A stretch of 64,000 nucleotides of DNA from Candidatus Heimdallarchaeum aukensis (GCA_021513695.1 CP084166.1:576001-640000), one strand, 5' to 3'; positions 4,117 to 33,195 are shown, counted from the first letter of the stretch. A program made the numbers and translations. Notes: generated by a model not told the origin, from the sequence alone.

Positions 4117-7100
4117 TTACACCGCTGTTGCCCACTCTTCACCAAACAACTGTGCTTGCTCCATTATTAATTTAATCGCATTAGGAGTTTGATCTGGTGG
4201 ATATTTATACTTTCGCAATAGTTTACGAATCTCAATACGCATGCGAGCTTGAACACTTTTTCTTACTGTGAAATCAATTGTAGCAGAATTTCGAACCTTA
4301 GCAACTAACTCTTTTGCTATTTTCTTTAATGTTTCATCACCCATTTCTCTTACAGCACTTTCATTTGTAGCTAAAGCATCATAAAAAGCAACTTCATCAT
4401 CATTTAATCCAAGTTCTTCTCCCTTTTTGAAAGCTTTTTGCATATCTTTCGCTAATTGAATCAATTCCTCTAAAATTGCAGCAGAAGCTATTGTACGATT
4501 GATATATTTGTTAATAGATTTCTGAAGTAATTCCTCAAAAGAACGAGATTGAACTAAATTCTTTTTAGCTCTAGAACGAATTTGATCCTTCAACAATTTA
4601 TTTAAAACCTCAACAGCTAAATTCTTTTGTTTTAATCCTCTAACTTCTTCAAGAAATTTATCAGAAAGAATAGAAATTTCTGGTTTATCCAATCCTGCTG
4701 CAGAAAAAATGTCTATAACATCTTCTGAAATAACAGCTCTAGAGATTAATTGTCTAATTGCATAATCAACTCTTTCTTTACGTTCTTTGGAAGGAGTAGT
4801 AGCTTTTACAAAACCAGCACGTACAGCTTGGAAAAAAGCTAAATCATCTCGAATAGCTAAAGCTTCTTCATGAGGAATAGCAAGAGAAAAGGCTTTATTT
4901 AGTGCTGAAAGGTTATCTAAAAACCTTTTTTTAGCACTTTCTGGAGTTTCATTAGGTAAATTAAGAATATGTTCCATAGCAGCAGGAAGTAATTGTAATC
5001 TTTGTAAAGCACTTCCTGTTTTAAACAAAGAATAATCAAAATTGTAAAACATATCTGAAACAATTTCATAATATGTTTTCATTAATTCTACAGCTTTTTC
5101 TTGAGGAATAGCTGTTTGTTCTCTTGACTCTACATTAGAATACCTAGATAATGCTTGCTTAAGAAAATAACCTATACCAATATAATCGACAATAAGACCT
5201 CCAGGTTTATCTTTATATACTCTATTTACTCTAGCTATCGCTTGCATTAAATTGTGTCCTTGCATTGGCTTATCTACATACATTGTATGCATACTAGGCA
5301 CATTAAAACCTGTTAACCACATATCTCTTACAATAACAAGTTTAAGTTCGTCCTCAGGATCTTTCATTCGATTTTCAATAATTTTTCTTTTTCTTTTAGG
5401 CCTAATGTGTGAACGCAATAATTGATCATCAGCAGCAGAACCGCTAATTACAACTTTAATGAAACCTTTTTGATCATCATTAGAATGCCACTCAGGCCTT
5501 AGTTTTATTATTTCATTATACAATAAAGCACAAATCCTGCGAGACATACAAACAATCATACCCTTTCCATCTATAATCTCAAGTCTTTTTTCAAAATGAT
5601 TTACAATATCCTCAGCTACTTCACGTAACCTATCGGGATCAGAAACAAGCCTTTCGACTCTTGACCACTTAGATTTCAATTTTTCTCGAGCATATTCTTC
5701 TTCATCTTCTGTGATTTCATCAAATTCTTCATCGATTTGACCCTTCAATTCTTCATTAAACTTAATTTTAACTAACCTTGATTCATAATAAATAGGAACA
5801 GTAGTTTTATCTCTTATTGCTTGTGAAATATCATAAATGCTAATATAATTACCAAAAACATGAATCGTATTTCTGTCGACAAGTTCTACAGGAGTAGCAG
5901 TAAAAGCAATAAAAGAAGCATTAGGCAGAGCTTGACGAATATAAGCAGCAAAACCTTCTTTTAATGAACCTTTTTCAGAAAGTTTTTTTCCAAAAGAATA
6001 ATGACTTCTATGAGCCTCATCAGCAATAACAATGATATTCCTCCTCTCAGATAAAAGAGGATATTGTGCATTCTCTTCAGGAAGAAATTTTTGTATTGTA
6101 GTGAAAATTACACCACCACCGGTTGTTTTAAGCAAATCCTCAATATTATCTTTTGTCGCTTCATGATTTTTTGGATTGTACCTCCTTGCTGTGGCTTGAA
6201 TAGAAGTTTGACGAAGAAGATCCCTTGATAAAGTAAAAGTTGTAAAAAGTTGGTCATCTAAATCGTTTCTATCAGTAATAACAACGACAGTAGGATTGTT
6301 AAGTAGCTGGATTAACTTTGCGGTATAAAATAACATTGTAAGACTCTTACCAGAACCTTGAGTATGCCAAACAACACCAATCTTTTGATCACCATCACTT
6401 CCAGTAGCTCGTAAAGTTTCCTTAATAGCACGATTAACAGCATGATATTGATGATAAGCAGCAGATTTCTTGACTATTGTTCTACCATCGTCTTCAAAAG
6501 TAATAAAAAATCTGATGTAATCTAAAAAACGAGAAGGTTCTAAAATACCACGAAATAAAACTTCAAGAGATAAGATTGATTGGTCAGCTAATATCTCTCC
6601 CTCAATAGTGCGCCAGGGAGTAAAACGCTCCCAATTAGCAGATAAACTGCCAGCTTTAGATTCATAACCATCACTAATAACAATTAACTCATTAGTCCTA
6701 AATAAAGAAGGAATTTCTTTTTTATAAGTCTGAATTTGATTATAAGCATCTCTTGTAGTCGTTTCTTCTTTAGATGGGTTCTTAAGCTCAATAACTACTA
6801 AAGGAATACCATTAACAAAGAGAACAATATCAGGTCGGTGATTGTGTTTGTCAGAACCAACACCTTCTATAACAGTAAATTGATTTACAGCTAAAAAATC
6901 ATTATTCTCAGGATTCTCAAAATCAATAACTCGTACTATATCTCCCTTTACACGACCATCATGGTAATAAGAGACTTCTACACCATCAACTAACATTCTA
7001 TGAAAAGAACGATTGTTTGTTAATAAATCAGGAGAATCAATACGGTTGAGTTTCTGCAAAACATCTTCAAGCACTTCTTTAGGTTTATCAGGATTAAGTT

Positions 7101-7272
7101 TATGTAAAGCTGATTTTAGTCTATCTTTAAGAATAATCTCACTATATGATAACCTTTCAGGATTATTTCCTGTTGGTGCAATATCTGGACCAAACTTGGT
7201 ATCATAACCTAATTCTCTTAAAATTTCCATAGATGCTTCTTCTAACTCTTTTTCAGTTATTTTCATAATCAA
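4117..7272 (-). CDS. hsdR: type I restriction enzyme R subunit (SF2 helicase/endonuclease)
   Basis: Helicase motif I WHTQGSGKSLTM, motif II IADEAHRSHY (DEAH), motif III FTATP, motif VI QAIARVNRV; 1051 aa. Overlaps hsdS by 20 bp. Confidence 0.9.
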   Translation of the reverse strand: MIMKITEKELEEASMEILRELGYDTKFGPDIAPTGNNPERLSYSEIILKDRLKSALHKLNPDKPKEVLEDVLQKLNRIDSPDLLTNNRSFHRMLVDGVEVSYYHDGRVKGDIVRVIDFENPENNDFLAVNQFTVIEGVGSDKHNHRPDIVLFVNGIPLVVIELKNPSKEETTTRDAYNQIQTYKKEIPSLFRTNELIVISDGYESKAGSLSANWERFTPWRTIEGEILADQSILSLEVLFRGILEPSRFLDYIRFFITFEDDGRTIVKKSAAYHQYHAVNRAIKETLRATGSDGDQKIGVVWHTQGSGKSLTMLFYTAKLIQLLNNPTVVVITDRNDLDDQLFTTFTLSRDLLRQTSIQATARRYNPKNHEATKDNIEDLLKTTGGGVIFTTIQKFLPEENAQYPLLSERRNIIVIADEAHRSHYSFGKKLSEKGSLKEGFAAYIRQALPNASFIAFTATPVELVDRNTIHVFGNYISIYDISQAIRDKTTVPIYYESRLVKIKFNEELKGQIDEEFDEITEDEEEYAREKLKSKWSRVERLVSDPDRLREVAEDIVNHFEKRLEIIDGKGMIVCMSRRICALLYNEIIKLRPEWHSNDDQKGFIKVVISGSAADDQLLRSHIRPKRKRKIIENRMKDPEDELKLVIVRDMWLTGFNVPSMHTMYVDKPMQGHNLMQAIARVNRVYKDKPGGLIVDYIGIGYFLKQALSRYSNVESREQTAIPQEKAVELMKTYYEIVSDMFYNFDYSLFKTGSALQRLQLLPAAMEHILNLPNETPESAKKRFLDNLSALNKAFSLAIPHEEALAIRDDLAFFQAVRAGFVKATTPSKERKERVDYAIRQLISRAVISEDVIDIFSAAGLDKPEISILSDKFLEEVRGLKQKNLAVEVLNKLLKDQIRSRAKKNLVQSRSFEELLQKSINKYINRTIASAAILEELIQLAKDMQKAFKKGEELGLNDDEVAFYDALATNESAVREMGDETLKKIAKELVAKVRNSATIDFTVRKSVQARMRIEIRKLLRKYKYPPDQTPNAIKLIMEQAQLFGEEWATAV

Positions 7273-7960
7273 TTTCCGCCAAAAATTTTTCTATATTAGT
7301 AATTCGAAGCCTACCTGAGATAAGTTGAGGAAGTAGAATATCTCTTAATTTAATTAAAATATTAATTTCATCCTTATTTTTTCTAATTTTTTCAAAGATT
7401 GGGTCAATTATTTCTCTAAACTTTAGTAAAGTAGTCTTATCAGGTTTTATAATCGGAATCCTAAAAAGGTTACTTTGATTAATTTTTAATTGTACTGCAC
7501 CAGTTATATAAGGTCTAATGTTTATATTCATGAGATGTAACATAACAAATTCTGTACAAAATTCATTTTTTCCTTGTATTACATGAACATGATTATTCGC
7601 CCAAAATTTTCCATGTACATATTGTAAGATGGGTTTTTCATTGTTATCAATAACTGAACCATCTTCTGCCATTAAGAGAAAAATGCCATCAAAAATGTAA
7701 TCATCAATATAGTCTAAAATACTAGCTGCCCCATAATATGGATAAATACCTTTTCTTACCTTTCTTTCTATTTTTGATAAAGGAATTCTTTTTGAATCAT
7801 ATATACTTATGACTTCTTTGAGCGTCCCAACTTCCCATCCTTTTGGTATTTCTTTATCTACTTCCTCATTATATTCAAATTCGCCATCTTTGAAAGGTTC
7901 AAAATCAATAAACCAAGATCTGAAGATAGTTTGGGCTATCTCTTCTAAAACTTTGTTCAT
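7253..7960 (-). CDS. hsdS: type I RM specificity subunit, half-size (central conserved motif + one TRD + C-terminal conserved helix); probably 5'-truncated
   Basis: Begins with the HsdS central conserved block IFRSWFIDFEPF and ends with the C-terminal conserved LRDILLPQLISGRLRI. Only 235 aa versus about 400-450 for two-TRD HsdS. No hsdM upstream; an IS lies 130 bp away. Confidence 0.7.
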   Translation of the reverse strand: MNKVLEEIAQTIFRSWFIDFEPFKDGEFEYNEEVDKEIPKGWEVGTLKEVISIYDSKRIPLSKIERKVRKGIYPYYGAASILDYIDDYIFDGIFLLMAEDGSVIDNNEKPILQYVHGKFWANNHVHVIQGKNEFCTEFVMLHLMNINIRPYITGAVQLKINQSNLFRIPIIKPDKTTLLKFREIIDPIFEKIRKNKDEINILIKLRDILLPQLISGRLRITNIEKFLAEIDYENN

Positions 7961-8092
7961 CTTCTGATTGAGTTCAATTTTTTGATCTATAGAGCTTAAT
8001 AATTTACTAATAAATTTTTGTATTCTTAAATTAGGTATAGGAAGTGGGATATTTTCAATAATTGAGGTATTTAAGGAAGGTCTAGTAGTACC

Positions 8093-8855
8093 GGTAGTGT
8101 CTAGTTTTCTTCCGACAAAAATATTTGTGGGGACTCTAATAGTAAGATATGAACATTCAAAAACTATCTACTCTTTTTAAGAGATGCAGAGTCCCCAAAA
8201 AAATAATAATAAAAGCTATTTATGAATATATTGGTTCAAAGAATGGGTTGAGGACAGTAGCATGGAAGAATGGTTTAACGCATCAAACATTATGGTATTG
8301 GGTAAAGAAGTTCAGGCTCTTTAGGGAAAGTTTACATAGAGTTGTAGCAGAGAGAGGGGGAATACCAGAGATTATAGTAGTAGATGAAACAGAGATTAGG
8401 ACCTCTCAAGGCTCAATATATCTGTGGTTCGCGTTAGATCCTTACAACAAGACTTTACTGGGTTTTAGTATTACTAAAGGACGGAGTAATCTTGAATGTT
8501 TACTAACTTTCCGTTATTGGCTCAAATGTTGGGGTTTTAAGCCTCGTATTGTCGTTACAGATGCAGGAGTATGGTATCCTGTCTTACTTCGTCTAGGTAT
8601 CAAAATCTCCGTTATCAAAGGTGGTTTACGCTCCTATATTGAACGTTTTAATGCTACTCTTAAGAGTTATCGTTGGTTTCATTCTATTCTCCACTGCACT
8701 TGTCCTATCCGTGCCGTCTATGGCTCTACTCATCTTTCTGGTTTTCTTACTCTCTTTATGCTCTATTATAATTTCGTTCGTCCTCATCAGAGCTTAGGAC
8801 ATCCTCCCCTTAGTTCCTTTTTACCTAGGAGGTGGTATAAAAACTAGACACTACC
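8093..8855 (+). mobile_element. IS6-family-like insertion sequence (~763 bp) with 16-bp terminal inverted repeats
   Basis: Left IR ggtagtgtctagtttt (8093..8108) and its perfect reverse complement aaaactagacactacc (8840..8855), flanking a single transposase ORF. No clear target-site duplication. Confidence 0.7.
8149..8847 (+). CDS. DDE transposase, IS6-like
   Basis: 232 aa. VVDETEIR...VVTDAG...RPHQSL blocks resemble IS6/IS26 Tnp (DETY...D...E spacing). The N-terminal 64 aa are repeated at 43001..43195. Confidence 0.75.
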   Translation: MNIQKLSTLFKRCRVPKKIIIKAIYEYIGSKNGLRTVAWKNGLTHQTLWYWVKKFRLFRESLHRVVAERGGIPEIIVVDETEIRTSQGSIYLWFALDPYNKTLLGFSITKGRSNLECLLTFRYWLKCWGFKPRIVVTDAGVWYPVLLRLGIKISVIKGGLRSYIERFNATLKSYRWFHSILHCTCPIRAVYGSTHLSGFLTLFMLYYNFVRPHQSLGHPPLSSFLPRRWYKN

Positions 8856-9122: not shown

Positions 9123-9524
9123 ATGCGTGGTGGAGGAAGAGGAAGAGGAGGAGGATTTGGATTAGGAGCAGGAGGAGCATGTATTTGTCCAGTGTGTGGT
9201 ACAAAAGCTGCTCATGCAAGAGGGGTACCTTGTTTTCAATCTCGATGCCCACAATGTGGAGCACCAATGACTAGAGCAGAAGCTTATGCCGGCCCCCAAC
9301 CACAGAATAGTAAAAACGTACAAGAAGAGAAAGAATACAAATTTGATACAGCAGCAAAACCGCATATAGACCAATCTAGATGTAAGGGGTGTGCTTTATG
9401 CATTAATAGTTGTCCTTTTAATGTTATTAGAATGGAAAATGGTCATGCAATTATTGATTCTTCACGCTGCAGAAGTTGCGGAGTATGTATTTCTTCTTGT
9501 CCTGAAGGGGCGATAGTTTATTAG
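9123..9524 (+). CDS. Gly/Arg-rich (RGG-like) N-terminus + 4-Cys zinc ribbon + 2x[4Fe-4S] ferredoxin domain protein
   Basis: MRGGGRGRGGGFGLGAGG, then CICPVCG...CPQCG, then two CxxCxxCxxxCP motifs (CKGCALCINSCP, CRSCGVCISSCP). Confidence 0.6.
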   Translation: MRGGGRGRGGGFGLGAGGACICPVCGTKAAHARGVPCFQSRCPQCGAPMTRAEAYAGPQPQNSKNVQEEKEYKFDTAAKPHIDQSRCKGCALCINSCPFNVIRMENGHAIIDSSRCRSCGVCISSCPEGAIVY

Positions 9525-9556: not shown

Positions 9557-9934
9557 TTATATTTTTAGTGGATCAATAATTATACTTTCTTTATCAAAAG
9601 TTGCCAAGTAAAAGTCTTCTGTTAAAGTGAGACAACCAGTTGGACAAATATCTTGACATAGTGCACAGAAGCAACATTTTCCTAAATCTATTTGTGGATA
9701 AGTTTTTGGGTATTTCTCTTTATATTCTTCTTTTACTTCTACCATCTTTATCGCTTTATTTAAACAAATTTTGGCACAAGATCCACAAGAGATGCAGTTA
9801 TCGATGTCAAACTTATGTTTTGCTCTCTCTCTTTCTGATATCTCTACTTTCTCCATTGGAAAAAGAACAGTCATTGGTCTTTTGAACAAATTCTTGAATA
9901 TTTCTGAAATAATACTTAGTTTCATTGTTATCAC
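9557..9934 (-). CDS. NuoI/EchF-like 2x[4Fe-4S] ferredoxin subunit
   Basis: CISCGSCAKIC and CCFCALCQDICP motifs; 125 aa; last gene of a B-C-D-I operon. Confidence 0.8.
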   Translation of the reverse strand: MITMKLSIISEIFKNLFKRPMTVLFPMEKVEISERERAKHKFDIDNCISCGSCAKICLNKAIKMVEVKEEYKEKYPKTYPQIDLGKCCFCALCQDICPTGCLTLTEDFYLATFDKESIIIDPLKI

Positions 9935-9935
9935 C

Positions 9936-11048
9936 TCATCTATCTACATCAGCAGGACATTGGTTTAAACTCCAATAAATAGCAGGGACGTCAGCATAAT
10001 AAGAATCAGTAAGTAAATGCTTTAAAATAGGTATCATGTGAGTAAAAGAAGGTCCTCTGATCTTAACTCTATAAGGAGTCTTTTTTCCTGTAGCAATCAT
10101 ATAAATAGCTCCTTCTCCTCTTGATAGTTCATTACGTGTATAGGTTTCTCCTTTAGCTTTGCGGAAGTGAACAATAGGTTTCATATTAGACGTTTTTACT
10201 TCCCCTTTTGGCATTCTGTCAATTGCTTGCTTAACTATCTTCTTGCTTTCTTCTATTTCTTGCATAGCTATCAAATATCTTGAATAAGCATCTCCTTCAT
10301 CAAAAACTGGAATTTCAAACTCCAATTCATCATAAATTTCATAAGGATCATCTCTTCTAACATCTGAAGCAACCCCGCTAGCCCTTAAAATAGGTCCTGT
10401 TGCACCTAGTTTAATAGCTTCTTCTTTCGTTAACACTCCTACTTCTTTGAATCTTTCCAACCATACAGGATTTTCTTTTTTTGCGAATTTATGCATATAG
10501 TCAATCTTTTCAAATAAAGTAAGAATCTTTTTTTCTGCTTTCTCTGGTAAATCTTTTCTTACTCCTCCAGGGCAGATATATCCAGCTGGATAAAGTCTTC
10601 CTCCAGTAATATAATCGAACACATCTAGCATATAGTCTCTGTATCCCATTGCAACATTAAATCCAGTAGTAAATCCTGTTCCCATTGACATTACAGCGTA
10701 CCATATAAAGTGCGATTGTATTCTTGACAGTTCTGCAAGTATAACTCTGATGTATTTAGCTCTTTCTGGGATATCATAACCCATTAAAGTATCAACAGCT
10801 TCTGCATGGAGAAGATTCCACTGAAGAGGTTCTAAAACACATATTCTATCTGATAATACAGAGTTTTGCATTGGTTCTCTATATTCCATTAACTTCTCAA
10901 AACCCCTATGTAAATATCCTGGATCAACTACAGCTTTCATCACTCTTTCTCCACGAAGCTGAACTCTCACTGAAAAGTTTCCTGAACCAGGGTGAGCTGG
11001 TCCAAAGTACATTTCAAAATCTCCTTGTCTTTCTTCTATTTCAGTCAT
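9936..11048 (-). CDS. NuoD / [NiFe]-hydrogenase large-subunit-like protein with degenerate Ni-Fe ligand motifs
   Basis: 370 aa. N-terminal RICVLE...W where hydrogenases have RxCGxCxxxH; C-terminal NQCPADVDR where hydrogenases have DPCxxCxxH. Only the first Cys of each pair is retained. Confidence 0.8.
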   Translation of the reverse strand: MTEIEERQGDFEMYFGPAHPGSGNFSVRVQLRGERVMKAVVDPGYLHRGFEKLMEYREPMQNSVLSDRICVLEPLQWNLLHAEAVDTLMGYDIPERAKYIRVILAELSRIQSHFIWYAVMSMGTGFTTGFNVAMGYRDYMLDVFDYITGGRLYPAGYICPGGVRKDLPEKAEKKILTLFEKIDYMHKFAKKENPVWLERFKEVGVLTKEEAIKLGATGPILRASGVASDVRRDDPYEIYDELEFEIPVFDEGDAYSRYLIAMQEIEESKKIVKQAIDRMPKGEVKTSNMKPIVHFRKAKGETYTRNELSRGEGAIYMIATGKKTPYRVKIRGPSFTHMIPILKHLLTDSYYADVPAIYWSLNQCPADVDR

Positions 11049-11593
11049 TTTTTCACCTCAAAATAAATATCTTCTCGGGGATTACTTTCATCATAATATT
11101 CTTGTTGTACATATTTTCGCCAGTCGAAGTCCTTTCTAAACGGAGGAGGGCCAGTCCAGTCTTCCAACATTAGTGGAGTAAGATTAACGTTTCCTTCAAA
11201 AATCACGCCATAAAACTCATGGCATTCTCTTTCACATAATTCTGCATTTTTACTCCATAGAGAAGTAACAGAAGATATTGTAGGATTTTCTCTATTTATC
11301 CTTGTTTTTATCGTTAAAAGCATTTTTTCTTTATAGGACCATAAATGGTAAGCAATTTCAAAATTATTCTTTTCAATCCAATCTGTAACACTTATTGTAG
11401 AAAGATGTTCAAAACCCATATCATAAGCAATCGAACAAGCATCTACTATTTCTTTAGGTTCAATAGATACCCAAAGTCTTTTTTTTCTTTGGATATTAAC
11501 CTTCTTGTTTAATTTCTTACTTAAAGCCGTTACAATTTTTTCTTCTTTATCCAAATTATTCTTCTCTTTCTCTACTACACTCATTTTACTCAC
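11045..11593 (-). CDS. NuoC (30 kDa subunit)-like protein
   Basis: 182 aa with the ...ECHEFYGVIFEGNVNLTPLMLEDWTGPPPFRKDFDW block typical of NuoC; 4-bp start/stop overlaps with neighbours. Confidence 0.8.
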   Translation of the reverse strand: MSKMSVVEKEKNNLDKEEKIVTALSKKLNKKVNIQRKKRLWVSIEPKEIVDACSIAYDMGFEHLSTISVTDWIEKNNFEIAYHLWSYKEKMLLTIKTRINRENPTISSVTSLWSKNAELCERECHEFYGVIFEGNVNLTPLMLEDWTGPPPFRKDFDWRKYVQQEYYDESNPREDIYFEVKK

Positions 11594-12030
11594 TCATCCG
11601 GCATTCCATGAACATGTTGAACTATTTTGAAAACAGCATCAAAAACAGCTTCAGGTCTGGGAGGACAACCAGGAATATACATGGTTACAGGAAGATAATC
11701 TTCAAGCTTCTTAACAGTGTTATATGAATCCCAATACATCCCACCTGTTATTGGACATGAACCCAATGCTAAGACAAACTTTGGATCAGGCATTTGCTCA
11801 TAAATCTTTTGTGCTCTCTTCATTGATTTTGGTGTCTGAAAACCAGCAATAAACAACACATCAGCCTTTCTTGGTGAATTAACTGTTATCATTCCAAAAC
11901 GTTCCATATCCCATCTTGAACCTACAACTGGAACAAGTTCAGTAAATCCACAAGAGTTAAACCAATTAAAAACCCAAATAGCTTTTACAAAATATTTCAT
12001 CACAGTTTTCTTCTTAACCATCCTTTCCAC
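11590..12030 (-). CDS. NuoB / hydrogenase small-subunit-like [4Fe-4S] protein
   Basis: Motifs GSCPITGG and IPGCPPRP present. The usual tandem CC motif reads SCGFTE, so one of four canonical Cys is missing. Confidence 0.8.
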   Translation of the reverse strand: MERMVKKKTVMKYFVKAIWVFNWFNSCGFTELVPVVGSRWDMERFGMITVNSPRKADVLFIAGFQTPKSMKRAQKIYEQMPDPKFVLALGSCPITGGMYWDSYNTVKKLEDYLPVTMYIPGCPPRPEAVFDAVFKIVQHVHGMPDE

Positions 12031-12398
12031 TTTCTTCTCTTTTGTTTAGAAACACTATACACGAATTCTTGCTATAATTATTTAAAAAAAAATTTACTTA
12101 CATATATCTTTTAGGGTAAGAATTTAATCGTGTTGCTATACTTACAAGCCCAAAAATGATAAAATAGGTCAAGGACTTTTCGGATAACCGAACATTAATC
12201 AGTATAAATACTTGCCTAATCATGTGAATAATTATGCACATGGTCAAAATGGTGATAACTGCGAATTAATCAATGAAATAGGTGTTTAAGAAAAAGCACT
12301 TCTACTTTGAAAAAGAAAAATAAATGAAAATAGTAAATCCAAAAAGTTACAGTAAATAGATAAAAATATAATAAAAAAGAAAATAAAAGACATCTAAG

Positions 12399-20489: not shown

Positions 20490-20831
20490 ATGATCAAAAA
20501 ACATTATGATCAAGTTGAAAAACTAGACGTAACAGACTACGGTTCTACAGGAACAACAATTAGATGGTTGATAACAAAAGAAGATGGTGCACCTAGATTT
20601 ACCATGCGAAGATTTGAAATTGAACCAAATGGTCAAATTGGAATGCATAGTCACCCACAAGAGCACGAAATTTACATTTTACAAGGAACTGGAATAGTTT
20701 ACAATGATAAAGAAGAATTTAATGTAAAAGCTCACGATGTATTGTTTGTTCCTCCAGATGAACCCCATGGCTATAAGAATACTGGAAATGAAAACTTCAC
20801 TTTTATCTGTGTCATTCCGTATTTAGAATAA
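20490..20831 (+). CDS. cupin-domain protein
   Basis: GMHSHPQEHEIYILQGTG fits G(x)5HxH(x)3-4E(x)6G. Confidence 0.7.
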   Translation: MIKKHYDQVEKLDVTDYGSTGTTIRWLITKEDGAPRFTMRRFEIEPNGQIGMHSHPQEHEIYILQGTGIVYNDKEEFNVKAHDVLFVPPDEPHGYKNTGNENFTFICVIPYLE

Positions 20832-21283
20832 AAAAATTAACTTTCTTTTACATTTTCAATCCATTTTTTCATTTCATCTATTGTAGGCATAGAACATTTT
20901 GAAACTATCCTTGGACTAGGCTTTTTAGCTACTTCAGTTGCTTTCTATAGTAACTCTTCTGGTTCATGAAATTGCTTATCTGGAGCTTTTGAACTATTAA
21001 GATAAACTTCTATATTTTTTAAGAACAATTTCTTCCATTTTGGTTTAATAAGTTGTAATGTTTCTACTGCTACTTTGTGATTACAGAACGACTCATTGAT
21101 TTTAATGCTATATTAAAATATGATGTCTAAAATTACATTTAAATAAAGAAAGCTTTTCAGTTTGTGGTTGTTCAATTTCTATACAGTGCAAAAAAAATCA
21201 ATAATTATATTTTCAGCTAAAAAAGTCATTGATTAAAATAGTTGTTAGAAAAACCTTAAATTTTATTATTTTCATTAAAAATT

Positions 21284-22066
21284 ATGGGAAAAGCTGAAAA
21301 AGATTATATTGATCGACTAGATGCCCAGTACAAACGTCAATCTGTATGGACGAAAGATTATAGAAATAAGATTTACCGTCAGATTGGTATTAAAGGGGCT
21401 AGAAGAATACTAGAAGTTGGTTGCGGAACAGGGGCCATTACCAAAGAAATTCGAGAAAAAAGCTCTGCTCAAATAACAGCCATCGATAGAGATCATTTAG
21501 TTATTGCTACTGCTCAAGAAAATATTACTGAGGTAGAATTTTATCGTATGAGCGTTGAAGAGATGTCCTTTCGGGATGAAACATTTGATATTGTTTTGTG
21601 TAACTATTTCTTTATGTGGCTTAATAAACCTTTCAAGTCTCTTATGGAGATGGTTAGAGTTTGTAAAACTGGAGGATATATTGTTGCTCTTGCAGAACCT
21701 GATTATGGAGGATGGATAGAACATCCTGATTTTGGTTTGGGAAAAAAACACATAGAAGGAATAAAAAAGCAAGGGGCTGACCCATTTATAGGGAGAAAAC
21801 TTCTTTCATTATTTGAATCTGGAGGGTTAGAAACAACTCTCTCTGTTGTTGCTAATGTCTGGGGAAAAGAAAGATTATTAGAACAAATTAAGAATGAATG
21901 GAAACTTGTTTTAGAAACAGAACAGATAAATGATGAAGAATACCAAGAAATAATAACCAAAGAAGTAAAGACTATAGAAGATAACATGAGAATGATTTTC
22001 TTACCTATATTTTCTGCTATAGGTAAAAAAATAAAATGTGTGCAAAAGCCCTCAACTCCTCCATAA
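21284..22066 (+). CDS. class I SAM-dependent methyltransferase
   Basis: Motif I ILEVGCGTGA; acidic motif II IDRD. Confidence 0.75.
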   Translation: MGKAEKDYIDRLDAQYKRQSVWTKDYRNKIYRQIGIKGARRILEVGCGTGAITKEIREKSSAQITAIDRDHLVIATAQENITEVEFYRMSVEEMSFRDETFDIVLCNYFFMWLNKPFKSLMEMVRVCKTGGYIVALAEPDYGGWIEHPDFGLGKKHIEGIKKQGADPFIGRKLLSLFESGGLETTLSVVANVWGKERLLEQIKNEWKLVLETEQINDEEYQEIITKEVKTIEDNMRMIFLPIFSAIGKKIKCVQKPSTPP

Positions 22067-24906: not shown

Positions 24907-26205
24907 TTGCTTGTTATGACTACTTCAGAAGAGTCAATACCAAGTGATAAATTTCTGAACTTAGAAAAAAATAAGATAGTAGAGGGAGAGATATTAAAAG
25001 AAACGGATAAGGAAAAAATAACACTAACTCCTAAAACAGGAAAAACAAGAAGTAAATTTGAATTGTATTTCTTTAGTACAGAAGTAATACTTATGATCGC
25101 GGGTATTGTTATTCTAATTTTAGTTTCAATTAGTCCTTGGCTTTTCTTTGAACACAATTTAATAATAAATAGAGATGAGTATGGAACAGTAATCAGCACA
25201 AGTATGTATATTGGAGATTTATCCCCATTGGCATTAGGATTAACTACTGTTTGCTTGATGTTTCCTTTATTAAACAACTATTTGTACATTTTTGTATTAG
25301 AAAGTGAAAAAAGATTAAAAGCTTATATTATACGATCTGCTACAAATGCAATAGCTTTAGCAGTAATGCTTGCTGTAAAAGCAAATGGAATTTATTTTAA
25401 AAGCAATTATTCACAGGCAGTTTTTTTTGCAATTTATACACTTTTTGGAAACTTTTACTTGAGAACAGCCTTATTGTTTACAAGAAAAAAATCAAAGAGT
25501 ATCTTATTCAGCAGAATAGAATCAGCTTCTCCAGCAGAAATAGAATGGAAAAAATACAACAAAATTTCAGGTTATCTAGCAGTAATATTAGGAATATTCA
25601 TGCTGCAGTTTATTTGGTTAATATACCATCTCATAATTAGACCTGCAAAAATAAACAAAACAAAGGATCAACTAATCATTGAATTTTTGGATTTTGGCCA
25701 AGAAGTAAACTGTAGTAAAATAGCCTTAGAGCTCGCCATTTCGCTTGAAGAAGTAATTTATAGAATAAAAAAGCTAGTATTTAAAGAACAAATCTCTGGA
25801 GAGTTTTCACGTTATGGTTTTATTTTACATGAGATAAAAAATCCAAAATGGTTCTCAAATAAAGTATCCGAGAAATACGAAGCATTTATTCTGACAGTGA
25901 AAATGTCAGAAAAAGAAAAGCATGTTAACAGATTCTTTGATATAGCGGAAAGAAAGAAGATTAGTGTTAATGAATTTAGAAGAATATTTAAGATCAAAGA
26001 TGATTATATCATAAGTGATTTTGTTCTATTACTACCTCCCCATACTGTTAAATTGAGAAAAAACATTGTATTAGGAAAGCAATTCCTTTTATTTAACTAT
26101 GATTTGATCTTGATGAAAAGAAAGCAAATCAAAGAAAGTTTGCTTTACCACTTTGACGAAGTATTTAACCTAAAGATTACTGAAAAGGTAAAAACAAAAA
26201 AATAA
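24907..26205 (+). CDS. membrane protein (N-terminal TM bundle) with C-terminal helical, wHTH-like soluble region
   Basis: 5-6 hydrophobic helices in the first 250 aa; no catalytic motif. Confidence 0.4.
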   Translation: MLVMTTSEESIPSDKFLNLEKNKIVEGEILKETDKEKITLTPKTGKTRSKFELYFFSTEVILMIAGIVILILVSISPWLFFEHNLIINRDEYGTVISTSMYIGDLSPLALGLTTVCLMFPLLNNYLYIFVLESEKRLKAYIIRSATNAIALAVMLAVKANGIYFKSNYSQAVFFAIYTLFGNFYLRTALLFTRKKSKSILFSRIESASPAEIEWKKYNKISGYLAVILGIFMLQFIWLIYHLIIRPAKINKTKDQLIIEFLDFGQEVNCSKIALELAISLEEVIYRIKKLVFKEQISGEFSRYGFILHEIKNPKWFSNKVSEKYEAFILTVKMSEKEKHVNRFFDIAERKKISVNEFRRIFKIKDDYIISDFVLLLPPHTVKLRKNIVLGKQFLLFNYDLILMKRKQIKESLLYHFDEVFNLKITEKVKTKK

Positions 26206-26355: not shown

Positions 26356-27426
26356 ATGATATGGCTTTCTTTATCTTATTCAATTTTTTCTTTAATAATT
26401 TTAACAATGTTTCTGATTGTTATTATTATAAAACAACTTGAACTTCGATGTACAGCAGTTTATTTTCTAATCATGATCATTGTATCTATTATTGGATGGA
26501 TAGTTGGAGATATGTTACAGATCATTTTTAGCAGCTTGGAAAATAAAGAATTGGTTCTCCTATTTTCACGAATAGCTACTATAAGTAGCATGATTGCAAT
26601 GATTAGCACAGTCTTATTTGCTAGAGTTCTAACTGCTCGTCAAACTTTGAATTCAACAATCGTAATTATTGCTTTCATGTTGTTTAGTGCTGTCGTTGCT
26701 CTCACTTTAAGTTCTAGTTATAAAGTAATTGATCCACCTAAAGATGTAGAATTTTACAAGACCGAAGCAGAACTCTTATGGGTAATTTTTGATGGAGTTT
26801 TGGTAATATTTGCTGGTTCTGTTTTCCTTTACTATCTTATTCGACAAAGAAAAATTGTACAAAAAAGATACTTACCTGTTTTAACTTTAATGAGCGTAGG
26901 AGTCATAATCGCTTTCTTTGTTAGCACTATCCTTTACACAATTTATGCGATATGGTTTATTGTTCCTTTATTACATTTAGAACTGGTAAGCGCTAGTTTA
27001 GGCGCAATAATAATAGGAATAGCAATGATCAAAGGAGGAAAAGAAGCAATTTACTATTCATCAAGAGTTTTCTCATTACATATTTTTGATGAAGTAGGAA
27101 TAAGCTATTATGCTAGTGTTTTTCAAGCAGGATATATAGTTGATGAGCAATTAATCTCAGGAGTAGCATCAGCTATTATAAGTTTTGCAAAAGAACTAAT
27201 CGGAAAAGAGGTTTTTCCACGAGAAATAGATCTTGACGATTACTCATTATTACTAGCTAAAAAAGACAATATAATTATTCTAATAAGCGTGGAATATCCT
27301 ACTGCACATCTAAGACAGACGATGAACAATATTATTGAAAAATTCAGTATGGATATGAGTGAAGAGGAAATAGGAAATCTTGTTGAAAACTATATATGCT
27401 TTGAACCAAGAAAACTAGTCCACTAA
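26356..27426 (+). CDS. polytopic membrane protein with C-terminal Roadblock/LC7 (MglB-like) domain
   Basis: About 8 TM helices. C-terminus ...GISYYASVFQ...LISGVASAIISFAKELIGKEV...DDYSLLLAKKDNIIILISVEYP fits the beta-alpha-beta-beta Roadblock pattern also seen in 46018.. and 57494.. Confidence 0.5.
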   Translation: MIWLSLSYSIFSLIILTMFLIVIIIKQLELRCTAVYFLIMIIVSIIGWIVGDMLQIIFSSLENKELVLLFSRIATISSMIAMISTVLFARVLTARQTLNSTIVIIAFMLFSAVVALTLSSSYKVIDPPKDVEFYKTEAELLWVIFDGVLVIFAGSVFLYYLIRQRKIVQKRYLPVLTLMSVGVIIAFFVSTILYTIYAIWFIVPLLHLELVSASLGAIIIGIAMIKGGKEAIYYSSRVFSLHIFDEVGISYYASVFQAGYIVDEQLISGVASAIISFAKELIGKEVFPREIDLDDYSLLLAKKDNIIILISVEYPTAHLRQTMNNIIEKFSMDMSEEEIGNLVENYICFEPRKLVH

Positions 27427-31974: not shown

Positions 31975-32547
31975 TTGAACTCCATGACAGAAAAACAGTT
32001 TATTTTCAAAATTGTACTTATTGGTGATGGCGCAGTAGGAAAAACTTCTATTAGAATGCAATATATGGGATACGGATTCAATACCAGTCATCTTATGACC
32101 CTGGGAGCAGATTTTTCATCTATTGATAAAGAAATTATTCCTAACGAAAAATGGAAATTTCAAATTTGGGATTTAGCAGGACAACAAATGTTTGAACAAG
32201 TTCGAGCTCGTTTTTACAAAGGAGCTCAGGGTGCCTTACTTGTCTTTGATATCACTCGCCCTTCCTCTTTTCAAAACCTTCCCATGTGGTTAAACGAATT
32301 GTATAAATTCAACGGATCAGGAGTTGTCCCTGTTGTAGTCCTTGCTAATAAGAGTGATTTGAGAGATAGAAAAAGTGTTAAATTCAAACATGTAGAAAAA
32401 TATGTTTCTGAATTAAATCTGCGTACCCAACGCTATGGTGTAACTAATTATTGTTTAGAAACAAGTGCCAAGACTGGATTAAACATCGATAGAGCTTTTG
32501 AAATTCTCGGGAGAAGCATTCGAGATAAATCAAGCAAAAAAACATAA
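31975..32547 (+). CDS. Rab/Ras-like small GTPase (canonical motifs)
   Basis: G1 GDGAVGKTS; switch I TLGADF; G3 WDLAGQ; G4 LANKSDL; G5 ETSAK. Confidence 0.8.
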   Translation: MNSMTEKQFIFKIVLIGDGAVGKTSIRMQYMGYGFNTSHLMTLGADFSSIDKEIIPNEKWKFQIWDLAGQQMFEQVRARFYKGAQGALLVFDITRPSSFQNLPMWLNELYKFNGSGVVPVVVLANKSDLRDRKSVKFKHVEKYVSELNLRTQRYGVTNYCLETSAKTGLNIDRAFEILGRSIRDKSSKKT

Positions 32548-32628: not shown

Positions 32629-33195
32629 ATGCTCACATTTAAGATCCTTTTTATAGGCGATAATAGCGTAGGTAAAACTACTTTATTTAAAAAAATTGTT
32701 CAAAATGAAAAAAATAAAGAAAAGATCCCTTCTCTAAAAGCAGAAATAGTAAAAGTTTATCGTACAATCCAAGGAGAAGAAGTAGCTTTTGAACTATATG
32801 ATTTACCTGCGAGAGAACTTTTATCATCTCCTCAAAGAACAAAATGGTATTTAGGGACTGATGGAGCGTTTATAGTTTTTGACATTACAAAAGCAGAAAC
32901 GTTCAGAAGAGTAACATTCTGGCTAGAACAATTAATAAATTATAACAGAAAAGGGAAGATACCTATAGTATTAGTAGGTAATAAAATAGATATGAGAGAC
33001 AATCCTAATGTGAGAAATAGGACACTAAACCCTATAGATGCTCAAGCTTTCTGTCTTCGACTAAATCGTACATCAGCTAGAGAAGGAATTAATAATGAAT
33101 TCTTCGAAGTCTCAGCAATCTCAGGGAAAGGTTTAACTCAATTACTTGATGCATTAGCTAAAAATATTTATAACCATCACAAAAAAATAAAATAG
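32629..33195 (+). CDS. small GTPase paralogue with degenerate switch I/II (G3 = DLPARE)
   Basis: G1 GDNSVGKTT, G4 VGNKIDM and G5 SAISGKG are intact. Switch I reads SLKAEI and the DxxGQ motif is replaced by YDLPARE (no Gly, no catalytic Gln). Confidence 0.7.
   Translation: MLTFKILFIGDNSVGKTTLFKKIVQNEKNKEKIPSLKAEIVKVYRTIQGEEVAFELYDLPARELLSSPQRTKWYLGTDGAFIVFDITKAETFRRVTFWLEQLINYNRKGKIPIVLVGNKIDMRDNPNVRNRTLNPIDAQAFCLRLNRTSAREGINNEFFEVSAISGKGLTQLLDALAKNIYNHHKKIK

Follow-up and report, generated by a model that had tools for sequence, protein, structure and literature searches.

A putative nickel-free MBS/MBX-type reductase head encoded without adjacent membrane-arm genes in Candidatus Heimdallarchaeum aukensis

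A compact four-gene operon of the Asgard archaeon Candidatus Heimdallarchaeum aukensis, located at positions 9557..12030 of a 64,000-nucleotide (nt) stretch of its genome (GCA_021513695.1, CP084166.1:576001-640000; the whole stretch is hereafter called the window), encodes homologs of subunits B, C, D and I of respiratory complex I. We interpret its product as a nickel-free reductase head of the MBS/MBX type, in which B-C-D-I correspond to MBS subunits J-K-L-N, and see about an even chance that this head is fed by ferredoxin and operates with no dedicated membrane arm, its substrate probably being a sulfane or a disulfide. The interpretation draws on homology, ligand pattern, gene contexts and purifying selection, from which the donor, substrate, catalytic site and solubility of the head are proposed.

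Results

The operon and its similarity to MBS

The four genes lie on the minus strand and are tightly packed: B and C, as well as C and D, overlap by 4 nt, and D and I are 1 nt apart. The first gene (11590..12030; 146 amino acids (aa) as an open reading frame (ORF); PF01058 at 6e-23) encodes an MbsJ/NuoB-like subunit B, predicted to hold one [4Fe-4S] cluster by three Cys ligands. It is followed by the MbsK/NuoC-like C (11045..11593; 182 aa as an ORF; PF00329 at 1e-29) and the MbsL/NuoD-like D (9936..11048; 370 aa; PF00346 at 6e-72), which has a weak additional match to PF00374 (NiFeSe_Hases) over residues 48-117. The last gene (9557..9934; 125 aa as an ORF; Fer4_7 and related Pfam families) encodes an MbsN/NuoI/NdhI-like subunit I with two [4Fe-4S] motifs, CxxCxxCxxxC and CxxCxxCxxxCP. 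The ORFs and their Pfam matches confirm the tight operon of four complex I Q-module homologs that had been proposed in an initial annotation of the window. Database entries for the proteins nearest to D, at 88%, 80% and 77% identity, carry the names Candidatus Heimdallarchaeaceae or Heimdallarchaeota.

Against solved structures, B, C and D each score higher with the MBS chains (6u8y J, K and L) than with chains of complex I, NDH-1, MBH or FHL. The best match of D is MbsL (6u8y_L at 7e-87; Thermus Nqo4 4e-68; MbhL 8e-43), that of B is MbsJ (6u8y_J at 1.5e-42; NdhK 4e-37; MbhJ 2.5e-31) and that of C is MbsK (6u8y_K at 1.2e-16). Subunit I matches NdhI best (6hum_I at 1.4e-23), then MbsN (6u8y_N at 1e-21). 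From the cofactor motifs, a chain of three [4Fe-4S] clusters is predicted, with two bound by I and the third by B; MBS, MBH and complex I have the same arrangement. The NuoB and NuoD database names arise because NCBIfam cutoffs are passed (NF004739 for NuoD, 381 bits versus 360; TIGR01957 for NuoB, 143.4 versus 142.7; also NF005012), which does not establish function. In MBX-like operons of bacteria, D is followed by a gene for a larger product of about 600 aa that contains 21-23 Cys (L037 11098..12930; L085 11208..13013; L numbers denote our loci). Subunit I of the window best matches the N-terminus of NCBIfam PRK13984 (611 aa), suggesting that there it is a longer protein with a NuoI-like N-terminus.

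All four genes are functional and under strong purifying selection. Compared with the Heimdall-type loci L002 and L007, at saturated synonymous sites (proportion of synonymous differences 0.58-0.82), the ratio of nonsynonymous to synonymous substitution rates (dN/dS) is 0.04-0.05 for B, 0.03-0.05 for D and 0.13-0.17 for I; for C it is 0.14, from L007 only, dS being saturated against L002. The range of 0.03-0.17 over the four genes rules out a decaying remnant.

The real starts of B, C and I are likely the ATG codons three codons downstream of the ORF starts, at 12021 (B, 143 aa), 11584 (C) and 9925 (I), because homologs and an independent gene call on an identical 3.2-kilobase (kb) metagenome contig (L001) place them there. 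An A/T-rich, TATA-like element, TTTAAATAATTATA, read by eye on the minus strand at about 12071-12084 within the intergenic region 12031..12110, lies approximately 55 nt before the likely start of B and is a plausible candidate for an archaeal promoter position. The GC content of the window is about 30%, and an Rfam scan of the window gave no RNA family matches.

Metal-ligand positions in D and B

Subunit D carries the motifs RIC70VLE73 and NQC364PAD367VDR. The first Cys of each hydrogenase CxxC pair is retained, and the second is replaced by Glu73 and Asp367, respectively. An alignment that includes MBS and a 4-Cys Asgard homolog thus finds two, and not all four, of the NiFe-binding Cys, which bears out the half-degenerate nickel-iron ligands described in the initial annotation. 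RIC70VLE and C364PAD align with RICVPE and CPPD of MbsL. The quinone ligands of Nqo4 have no counterparts, His38 falling on a gap and Tyr87 on Val71. The position of the hydrogenase proton-relay Glu (MbhL E21) is Asn24, as judged via the 4-Cys Asgard homolog (HKEP versus SGNF). By these alignments D is predicted to have no possible Ni site, and the quinone ligands are missing.

Among 121 aligned D sequences, His19, Asn24, Glu73, Cys364 and Asp367 are invariant, and Cys70 and Cys159 have one exception each (Ser in the case of Cys70). Cys159 is restricted to D proteins at least 60% identical to that of the window; MbsL has Ile at this position, and distant MBX-like proteins have Ile, Arg, Trp or Pro. 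It aligns with Arg174 of Nqo4, five residues past the position of His169, which adjoins cluster N2; therefore Cys159 may lie close to the cluster of B, and could be its fourth ligand or a catalytic thiol. An AlphaFold2 model of D from a 20-sequence alignment has a mean predicted local distance difference test score of 59.6, with values below 50 around all ligand regions, and it is the alignment that places Cys159.

Subunit B has three cluster Cys, in the motifs WFNSCGFTE (with a single Cys), GSC and PGCPP, so that the three of four N2-cluster Cys noted initially are borne out. They align with C28, C93 and C123 of MbsJ, on which the predicted coordination is based. The tandem Cys-Cys of NuoB and NdhK (ACC or SCC) is replaced by SCG. 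The hydrogenase CxxC is not present either (SCGFTE versus SCNGCDIE in the 4-Cys Asgard homolog L091), and the loop is short as in MbsJ, with four residues less than in L091 (GSCNGCDIE).

A conserved family in several genomic contexts

We labelled some 70-odd loci from genomes and metagenomes using our own ORF calls, seed BLAST and precomputed Pfam tables. A scan of species-representative genomes revealed a sharp break in D identity: members of the family are at least 60% identical to the window protein, and other MBX-like operons, found in many bacteria and archaea, reach at most 46% (38-46% for the relatives compared). The family is spread over Asgard archaea, Thermoplasmata and other lineages, and every member examined, in any context, combines a 2-Cys D with a 3-Cys B.

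The genomic context of the four genes is variable. In about 16 loci (L011, L014, L016, L030, L116, L119, L120, L125-L128, L130-L133 and L135) the head is preceded by small Mrp-like transmembrane (TM) genes and one antiporter-like gene (about 510 aa), and a NuoH-like anchor is present. In five distinct loci (L003/L004, L005/L006, L009, L089 and L099) the genes for HdrA (a fusion with MvhD/FlpD of about 770 aa), HdrC and HdrB come immediately after B-C-D-I, and the surroundings lack membrane genes; four further loci (L102, L105, L018 and L109) have Hdr-like genes nearby. Mrp- and Hdr-linked members are 60-65% identical to the window module. At least 13 loci are stand-alone (the window, L002, L007, L092, L175, L015, L088, L097, L100, L108, L111, L113 and L124); all Heimdall-type loci examined fall in this class. 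Finally, a single locus, L087, has a NuoH paralog upstream and no antiporter.

Six of the Mrp-linked loci (L126, L127, L128, L130, L131 and L133; e.g., L131 4710..12297) contain one Mrp-type module followed by two complete heads with their own NuoH-like anchors. The Ni-free B-C-D-I-H comes first, and a hydrogenase head follows (B with CxxC, D with RVCGIC, then H and I). The two alternative heads may share one pump.

Non-Asgard soluble loci (L003, L088, L089, L111, L141, L018 and L056) have recurrent flanks: a metallo-beta-lactamase-fold protein of about 215 aa, a UbiE-like methyltransferase with a radical-SAM protein, TrmO_N and OsmC, to which L088 adds a thioredoxin, a cupin and ArsP. These flanks could hint at a role in sulfur, persulfide or stress metabolism. 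The window itself encodes a 113-aa cupin at 20490..20831 (plus strand), 43% identical to the cupin located 2 kb upstream of B-C-D-I in L088, with a UbiE-like methyltransferase after it (21284..22066). Among the more distant Asgard and archaeal relatives (D 44-46% identical), L026 (8609..10624), L023 and L052 carry a gene whose product (about 670 aa, 15 Cys) joins a Cys-rich N-terminal part to a 2-Cys D (RICVLD...CPADHDR); in L026 this Ni-free fusion variant has no adjacent membrane genes.

The Asgard branch

A neighbor-joining (NJ) tree of D, distance-based and lacking support values, groups the Asgard sequences in a single clade whose sister is a non-Asgard clade. The Asgard clade includes the stand-alone sequences of the window, L002, L007, L008 and L092, as well as L087/L093. 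The Mrp-linked forms branch near the base of the non-Asgard clade and the Hdr-linked loci all fall within it; the D of L091 is placed well outside the family.

Two Asgard loci show a different relation to membrane genes. In L087 (7825..11516) a NuoH paralog lies immediately upstream of a Ni-free B-C-D-I with a D 67% identical to that of the window, and no antiporter genes are nearby. L091 (7730..15960) is a complete B-C-D-H-I-J-K-L-M operon with a four-Cys D (RLCGIC...DPCVGC) and CxxC in B; this is the type of complex-I-like hydrogenase described for Heimdallarchaeia (10.1101/2024.07.04.601786). These archaea therefore hold a true hydrogenase-type complex and, separately, a Ni-free head. Both loci are contigs of one assembly (ERZ26802894) with similar coverage, possibly from one genome. 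The NuoH of L087 shares 53% identity with that of L091 but just 29% with the Mrp-type anchor of L011. A copy of a complex-I-type anchor appears to have been gained by the Ni-free head in one lineage, the direction being our reading.

Membrane and Hdr genes in the window and flanks

The initial annotation had reported no membrane subunits on either side of the operon, and Pfam and tblastn searches over the 64 kb window agree. Pfam scans covered ten multi-TM ORFs, two adjoining B and eight elsewhere, and the remaining multi-TM ORFs were searched by tblastn only. None of the ten matched a Nuo or Mrp family; eight matched H+-PPase, MFS (two ORFs), P-type ATPase, VKOR, YhhN, MMPL and alpha/beta hydrolase, and two (26356..27426 and 24907..26205) had no match. 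In tblastn of the 64 kb window, three NuoH, three antiporter-like, NuoJ, NuoK and HdrA, HdrB and HdrC seeds gave only ferredoxin-domain matches. NuoH, Mrp and Hdr genes were likewise not found within about 8-10 kb on either side of the module in the Heimdall-type loci L002, L007, L092 and L175.

Several ORFs were considered as divergent NuoH proteins, namely those at 26356..27426 and 24907..26205 of the window, a 356-aa gene of L092 and a 361-aa gene of L015; none resembles any NuoH seed, and they were rejected. The products of window 26356..27426 (plus strand) and of L092 5699..6769 are 356 aa each, with about seven N-terminal TM helices, a soluble C-terminal domain and no Pfam match. The latter gene lies directly upstream of B, and its product has no detectable similarity to the window protein or to NuoH.

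The neighboring ferredoxin and other genes

Convergent to the module, on the plus strand at 9123..9524, lies a gene for a 133-aa ferredoxin that consists of a Gly/Arg-rich tail, a six-Cys segment (CxCPVCG...H.RG.PC...C..CG) and a 2x[4Fe-4S] domain (Fer4, residues 79-131). Its homologs beside the module in L002 and L007 are 54% and 47% identical, respectively, in the same convergent position in L002 and upstream with one gene between in L007; no homolog was seen beside the module in L092 or L175. Counting the window, the ferredoxin is thus syntenic with the module in three diverged Heimdall loci, as the initial annotation had suggested checking. The synteny supports, short of proof, the ferredoxin as a candidate electron partner. 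Its dN/dS is about 0.2.

The N-terminal segment of the ferredoxin (window 9123..9290; Gly-rich, with CxCPxCG...H.RG.PC...CPxCG) recurs in L011 at 20746..21069 as the C-terminal half of a helix-turn-helix-containing, possibly DUF134-like protein, so that this Gly-rich and Cys-rich segment looks like an independent small module. On the side of the module opposite to the ferredoxin, 5.5 kb away, a flavodoxin gene (PF12724; 17576..18151, minus strand) encodes a protein 38% identical to the flavodoxin that follows the ferredoxin in L002.

The ferredoxin gene is adjoined by a region (4117..8847) of type I restriction genes (HsdR, 4117..7272; HsdS-like, 7253..7960) and an rve-family transposase (8149..8847). 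L002 has unrelated genes there, which suggests a local insertion or rearrangement. Further away, two adjacent plus-strand genes (31975..32547 and 32629..33195) encode proteins of about 190 aa with small-GTPase-type P-loops (GDGAVGKT and GDNSVGKT); such proteins are common in Asgard genomes.

Discussion

Proposed function of the head

We propose that reduced ferredoxin, probably the syntenic 133-aa protein, would pass electrons to the two [4Fe-4S] clusters of I and from there to the single [4Fe-4S] cluster of B. Because this cluster has only three Cys ligands, one of its irons would be free, and the substrate would be reduced at or beside the open iron, in a pocket lined by Cys70, Cys159, Cys364, Glu73 and Asp367 of D. 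Judging from MBS, the likeliest substrate is sulfane sulfur in the form of a polysulfide or persulfide, or else an organic disulfide or trisulfide. The head is probably soluble or loosely attached; elsewhere the same head plugs into Mrp-type ion pumps or HdrA(MvhD)BC. An MbsJKLN subcomplex from the cytoplasmic fraction of P. furiosus reduces dimethyltrisulfide (PMC7684303), and therefore a head without a membrane arm can be stable and active. Independence from a membrane arm is favored by the repeated stand-alone loci, by relatives whose operons continue into soluble Hdr genes, and by the N-terminal positions 5 and 11 of subunit I, which are Met/Val in Mrp-linked members and Lys/Glu in both stand-alone groups. 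These two positions are the sole consistent differences between the contexts.

Several observations weigh against this proposal. About 16 family members sit in Mrp, antiporter or NuoH operons, and a NuoH paralog lies directly upstream of the same four genes in L087. Whether membrane-linked or stand-alone, the loci encode B, C, D and I of identical lengths and a D with a conserved beta1-beta2 loop, and a comparison of hydropathy and conservation of the four subunits between the two groups gave no systematic sign that hydrophobic surface had been lost. Beyond the 64 kb window, the genome may encode a partner of the NuoH, Mrp or Hdr type. As to the chemistry, the substrate is assigned solely by analogy with MBS, and in MBS the two MbsL Cys are dispensable for the model reaction (PMC7684303). 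The same Cys are near-strictly conserved in the window family, together with Glu73, Asp367 and Cys159. Of the soluble, possibly ferredoxin-linked module envisaged initially, the ferredoxin link has gained support from synteny, and solubility is not supported, given the NuoH of L087, the Mrp-linked relatives and the lack of a clear sequence signal for loss of a membrane-facing surface.

A broader version of the idea, which we consider rather unlikely, is that the head is a self-sufficient soluble enzyme with three alternative partners (an Mrp pump, HdrA(MvhD)BC, or ferredoxin only). In Heimdallarchaeia it would then be a cytoplasmic ferredoxin:sulfane-sulfur or ferredoxin:disulfide reductase, with chemistry like that of ferredoxin:thioredoxin reductase, based on the open iron and Cys70, Cys159 and Cys364. 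If true, the archaea most closely related to eukaryotes would have the complex I Q-module in a free-living form, and its Hdr-linked version would be a new class of bifurcating enzyme.

Alternative explanations

The module could instead be an alternative peripheral arm that docks on a NuoH-type anchor encoded elsewhere, either its own paralog or that of the complex-I-like hydrogenase, and couples ferredoxin oxidation to ion pumping as MBS does. We hold this to be possible, if doubtful. L087 is its best illustration, with NuoH and B-C-D-I, no antiporter genes nearby, and an anchor nearer to that of the L091 hydrogenase (53%) than to that of L011 (29%). Heads appear exchangeable because two head types share one Mrp module in several non-Asgard loci, where MBS-type and 4-Cys hydrogenase heads, each with NuoH, lie behind it, and the lack of detected hydrophobic-surface loss in stand-alone members fits a docked head as well. 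However, five Heimdall-type loci have neither NuoH nor Mrp within about 8-10 kb on either side, and close homologs of the L087 NuoH (66% identity or more) are scarce, forming 4 clusters compared with 19 for the Asgard-type D. Named matches to this NuoH come from Hodarchaeales, Promethearchaeota, Odinarchaeota, Heimdallarchaeota and others and include no Heimdallarchaeaceae, though most matches are nameless. The same head is, moreover, operon-linked to soluble Hdr in other lineages. That linkage raises the option that the head serves as an electron input or output module of a flavin-based bifurcating HdrA(MvhD)BC in place of MvhAG, with the hdr genes elsewhere in the genome. The direct succession of B-C-D-I and HdrA-HdrC-HdrB in L003/L004, L005/L006, L009, L089 and L099, and the Hdr-like genes near L102, L105, L018 and L109, speak for it; yet the 64 kb window and the flanks of L002, L007, L092 and L175 contain no Hdr homolog, the Hdr-linked loci are confined to the non-Asgard clade of the NJ tree, and the conserved Heimdall neighbor is a ferredoxin instead. 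For the window module we therefore judge a role of this kind improbable.

The ligand positions of D and B decide against the two conventional assignments, both of which we reject. It is very improbable that the genes encode an ordinary quinone-reducing complex I Q-module (NuoBCDI) from a split nuo operon, despite the passed NuoB and NuoD cutoffs and the naming of relatives as 'NADH-quinone oxidoreductase subunit D': B lacks the tandem Cys-Cys, D is without the quinone-binding His and Tyr and keeps two hydrogenase Cys, the MBS chains score far better than those of complex I, and the window has no NuoA, H, J, K, L, M or N. Least probable of all, to the point of being hardly credible, is a working [NiFe] group 4 hydrogenase. 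The weak PF00374 match at residues 48-117 of D points in that direction, and a preprint calls an Asgard NuoD 'a catalytically active [NiFe]-hydrogenase' (10.1101/2024.07.04.601786), but at most two of the four metal-binding Cys are found across 121 family members, B is without the hydrogenase CxxC, and the genuine 4-Cys Asgard homolog L091 is clearly distinct.

Relation to known systems

Our preferred reading, a ferredoxin-fed MBS/MBX-type head without its own membrane arm, is built on P. furiosus MBS (formerly MBX; 6U8Y), which has the same four subunits in the same gene order. MbsL keeps two of the four NiFe Cys (C85 and C385), the proximal cluster of MbsJ has only three Cys since the loop of the first pair is shortened, and the complex I quinone ligands are missing (PMC7684303). 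The window module shares the 2-Cys large subunit (Cys/Glu and Cys/Asp), the 3-Cys small subunit on a short loop and the lack of quinone ligands. The intermediate between Ech/Mbh hydrogenases and complex I proposed in the initial annotation is therefore textbook MBX/MBS, since all three published hallmarks are present, and it is not a new state, as the same features already define MBS/MBX and Ehr. The differences are that the Mrp-type arm and the NuoH-like anchor MbsM occur only in the MBS locus; that B and I of the window are shorter than MbsJ (192 aa) and MbsN (208 aa); that the non-ligand Cys25 of MbsJ is missing from B; and that D is moderately similar to MbsL, with Cys159 in place of Ile. 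The hosts also differ, a low-GC Asgard archaeon versus a hyperthermophilic member of the Thermococcales.

Ehr complexes (Marreiros et al. 2013; described in PMC6349859) have hydrogenase-like large and small subunits without a full set of Ni-Fe ligands, incomplete as in the window. They are described as membrane complexes with Mrp antiporter-like subunits, which the window lacks and the relatives in L011, L014, L016, L030 and other loci have. The complex-I-like group 4 [NiFe] hydrogenases of Asgard archaea (Appler et al., 10.1101/2024.07.04.601786; L090 and L091) occur in the same phylum and share a NuoBCDI-type arm without NuoEFG, with ferredoxin as the proposed donor; they differ in having H, J, K, L and M genes, a 4-Cys D and CxxC in B. 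Cyanobacterial and chloroplast NDH-1, whose NdhI is the best solved match for I and NdhK the second for B, also has no NuoEFG and uses ferredoxin as a donor, but it reduces plastoquinone, has a tandem Cys-Cys in NdhK and carries a full membrane arm. In the Hdr-linked relatives the large/small subunit pair occupies the place of MvhAG of MvhAGD-HdrABC before HdrA-MvhD, HdrC and HdrB; the window head is derived from group 4 and Ni-free, whereas MvhAG belongs to group 3c, and no hdr gene is found in the window.

Significance

Hydrogenase subunits are the ancestors of the complex I Q-module, and to our knowledge MBS is the only characterized step at which nickel has been lost and quinone chemistry not yet gained. 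The ligand pattern, the homology and the missing-link idea are already known from MBX/MBS and Ehr. The distinct conserved subfamily, its frequent lack of membrane genes and its linkage to HdrA(MvhD)BC are undescribed in the open-access literature that we searched, subscription-only papers being outside its scope.

Genes of this family are annotated as NADH-quinone oxidoreductase subunits and may be counted as 'complex I' or 'hydrogenase', and the ligand pattern excludes both. An Asgard study covering such genes treats NuoD-like proteins as hydrogenases (10.1101/2024.07.04.601786); for the window family this assignment is excluded by the ligands deduced from the alignments. The Hdr-linked relatives would add a type of bifurcating complex of which the literature searched gave no description. 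If the head works without a membrane arm, the catalytic unit would be a stable, transferable enzyme, which bears on the modular assembly of respiratory complexes.

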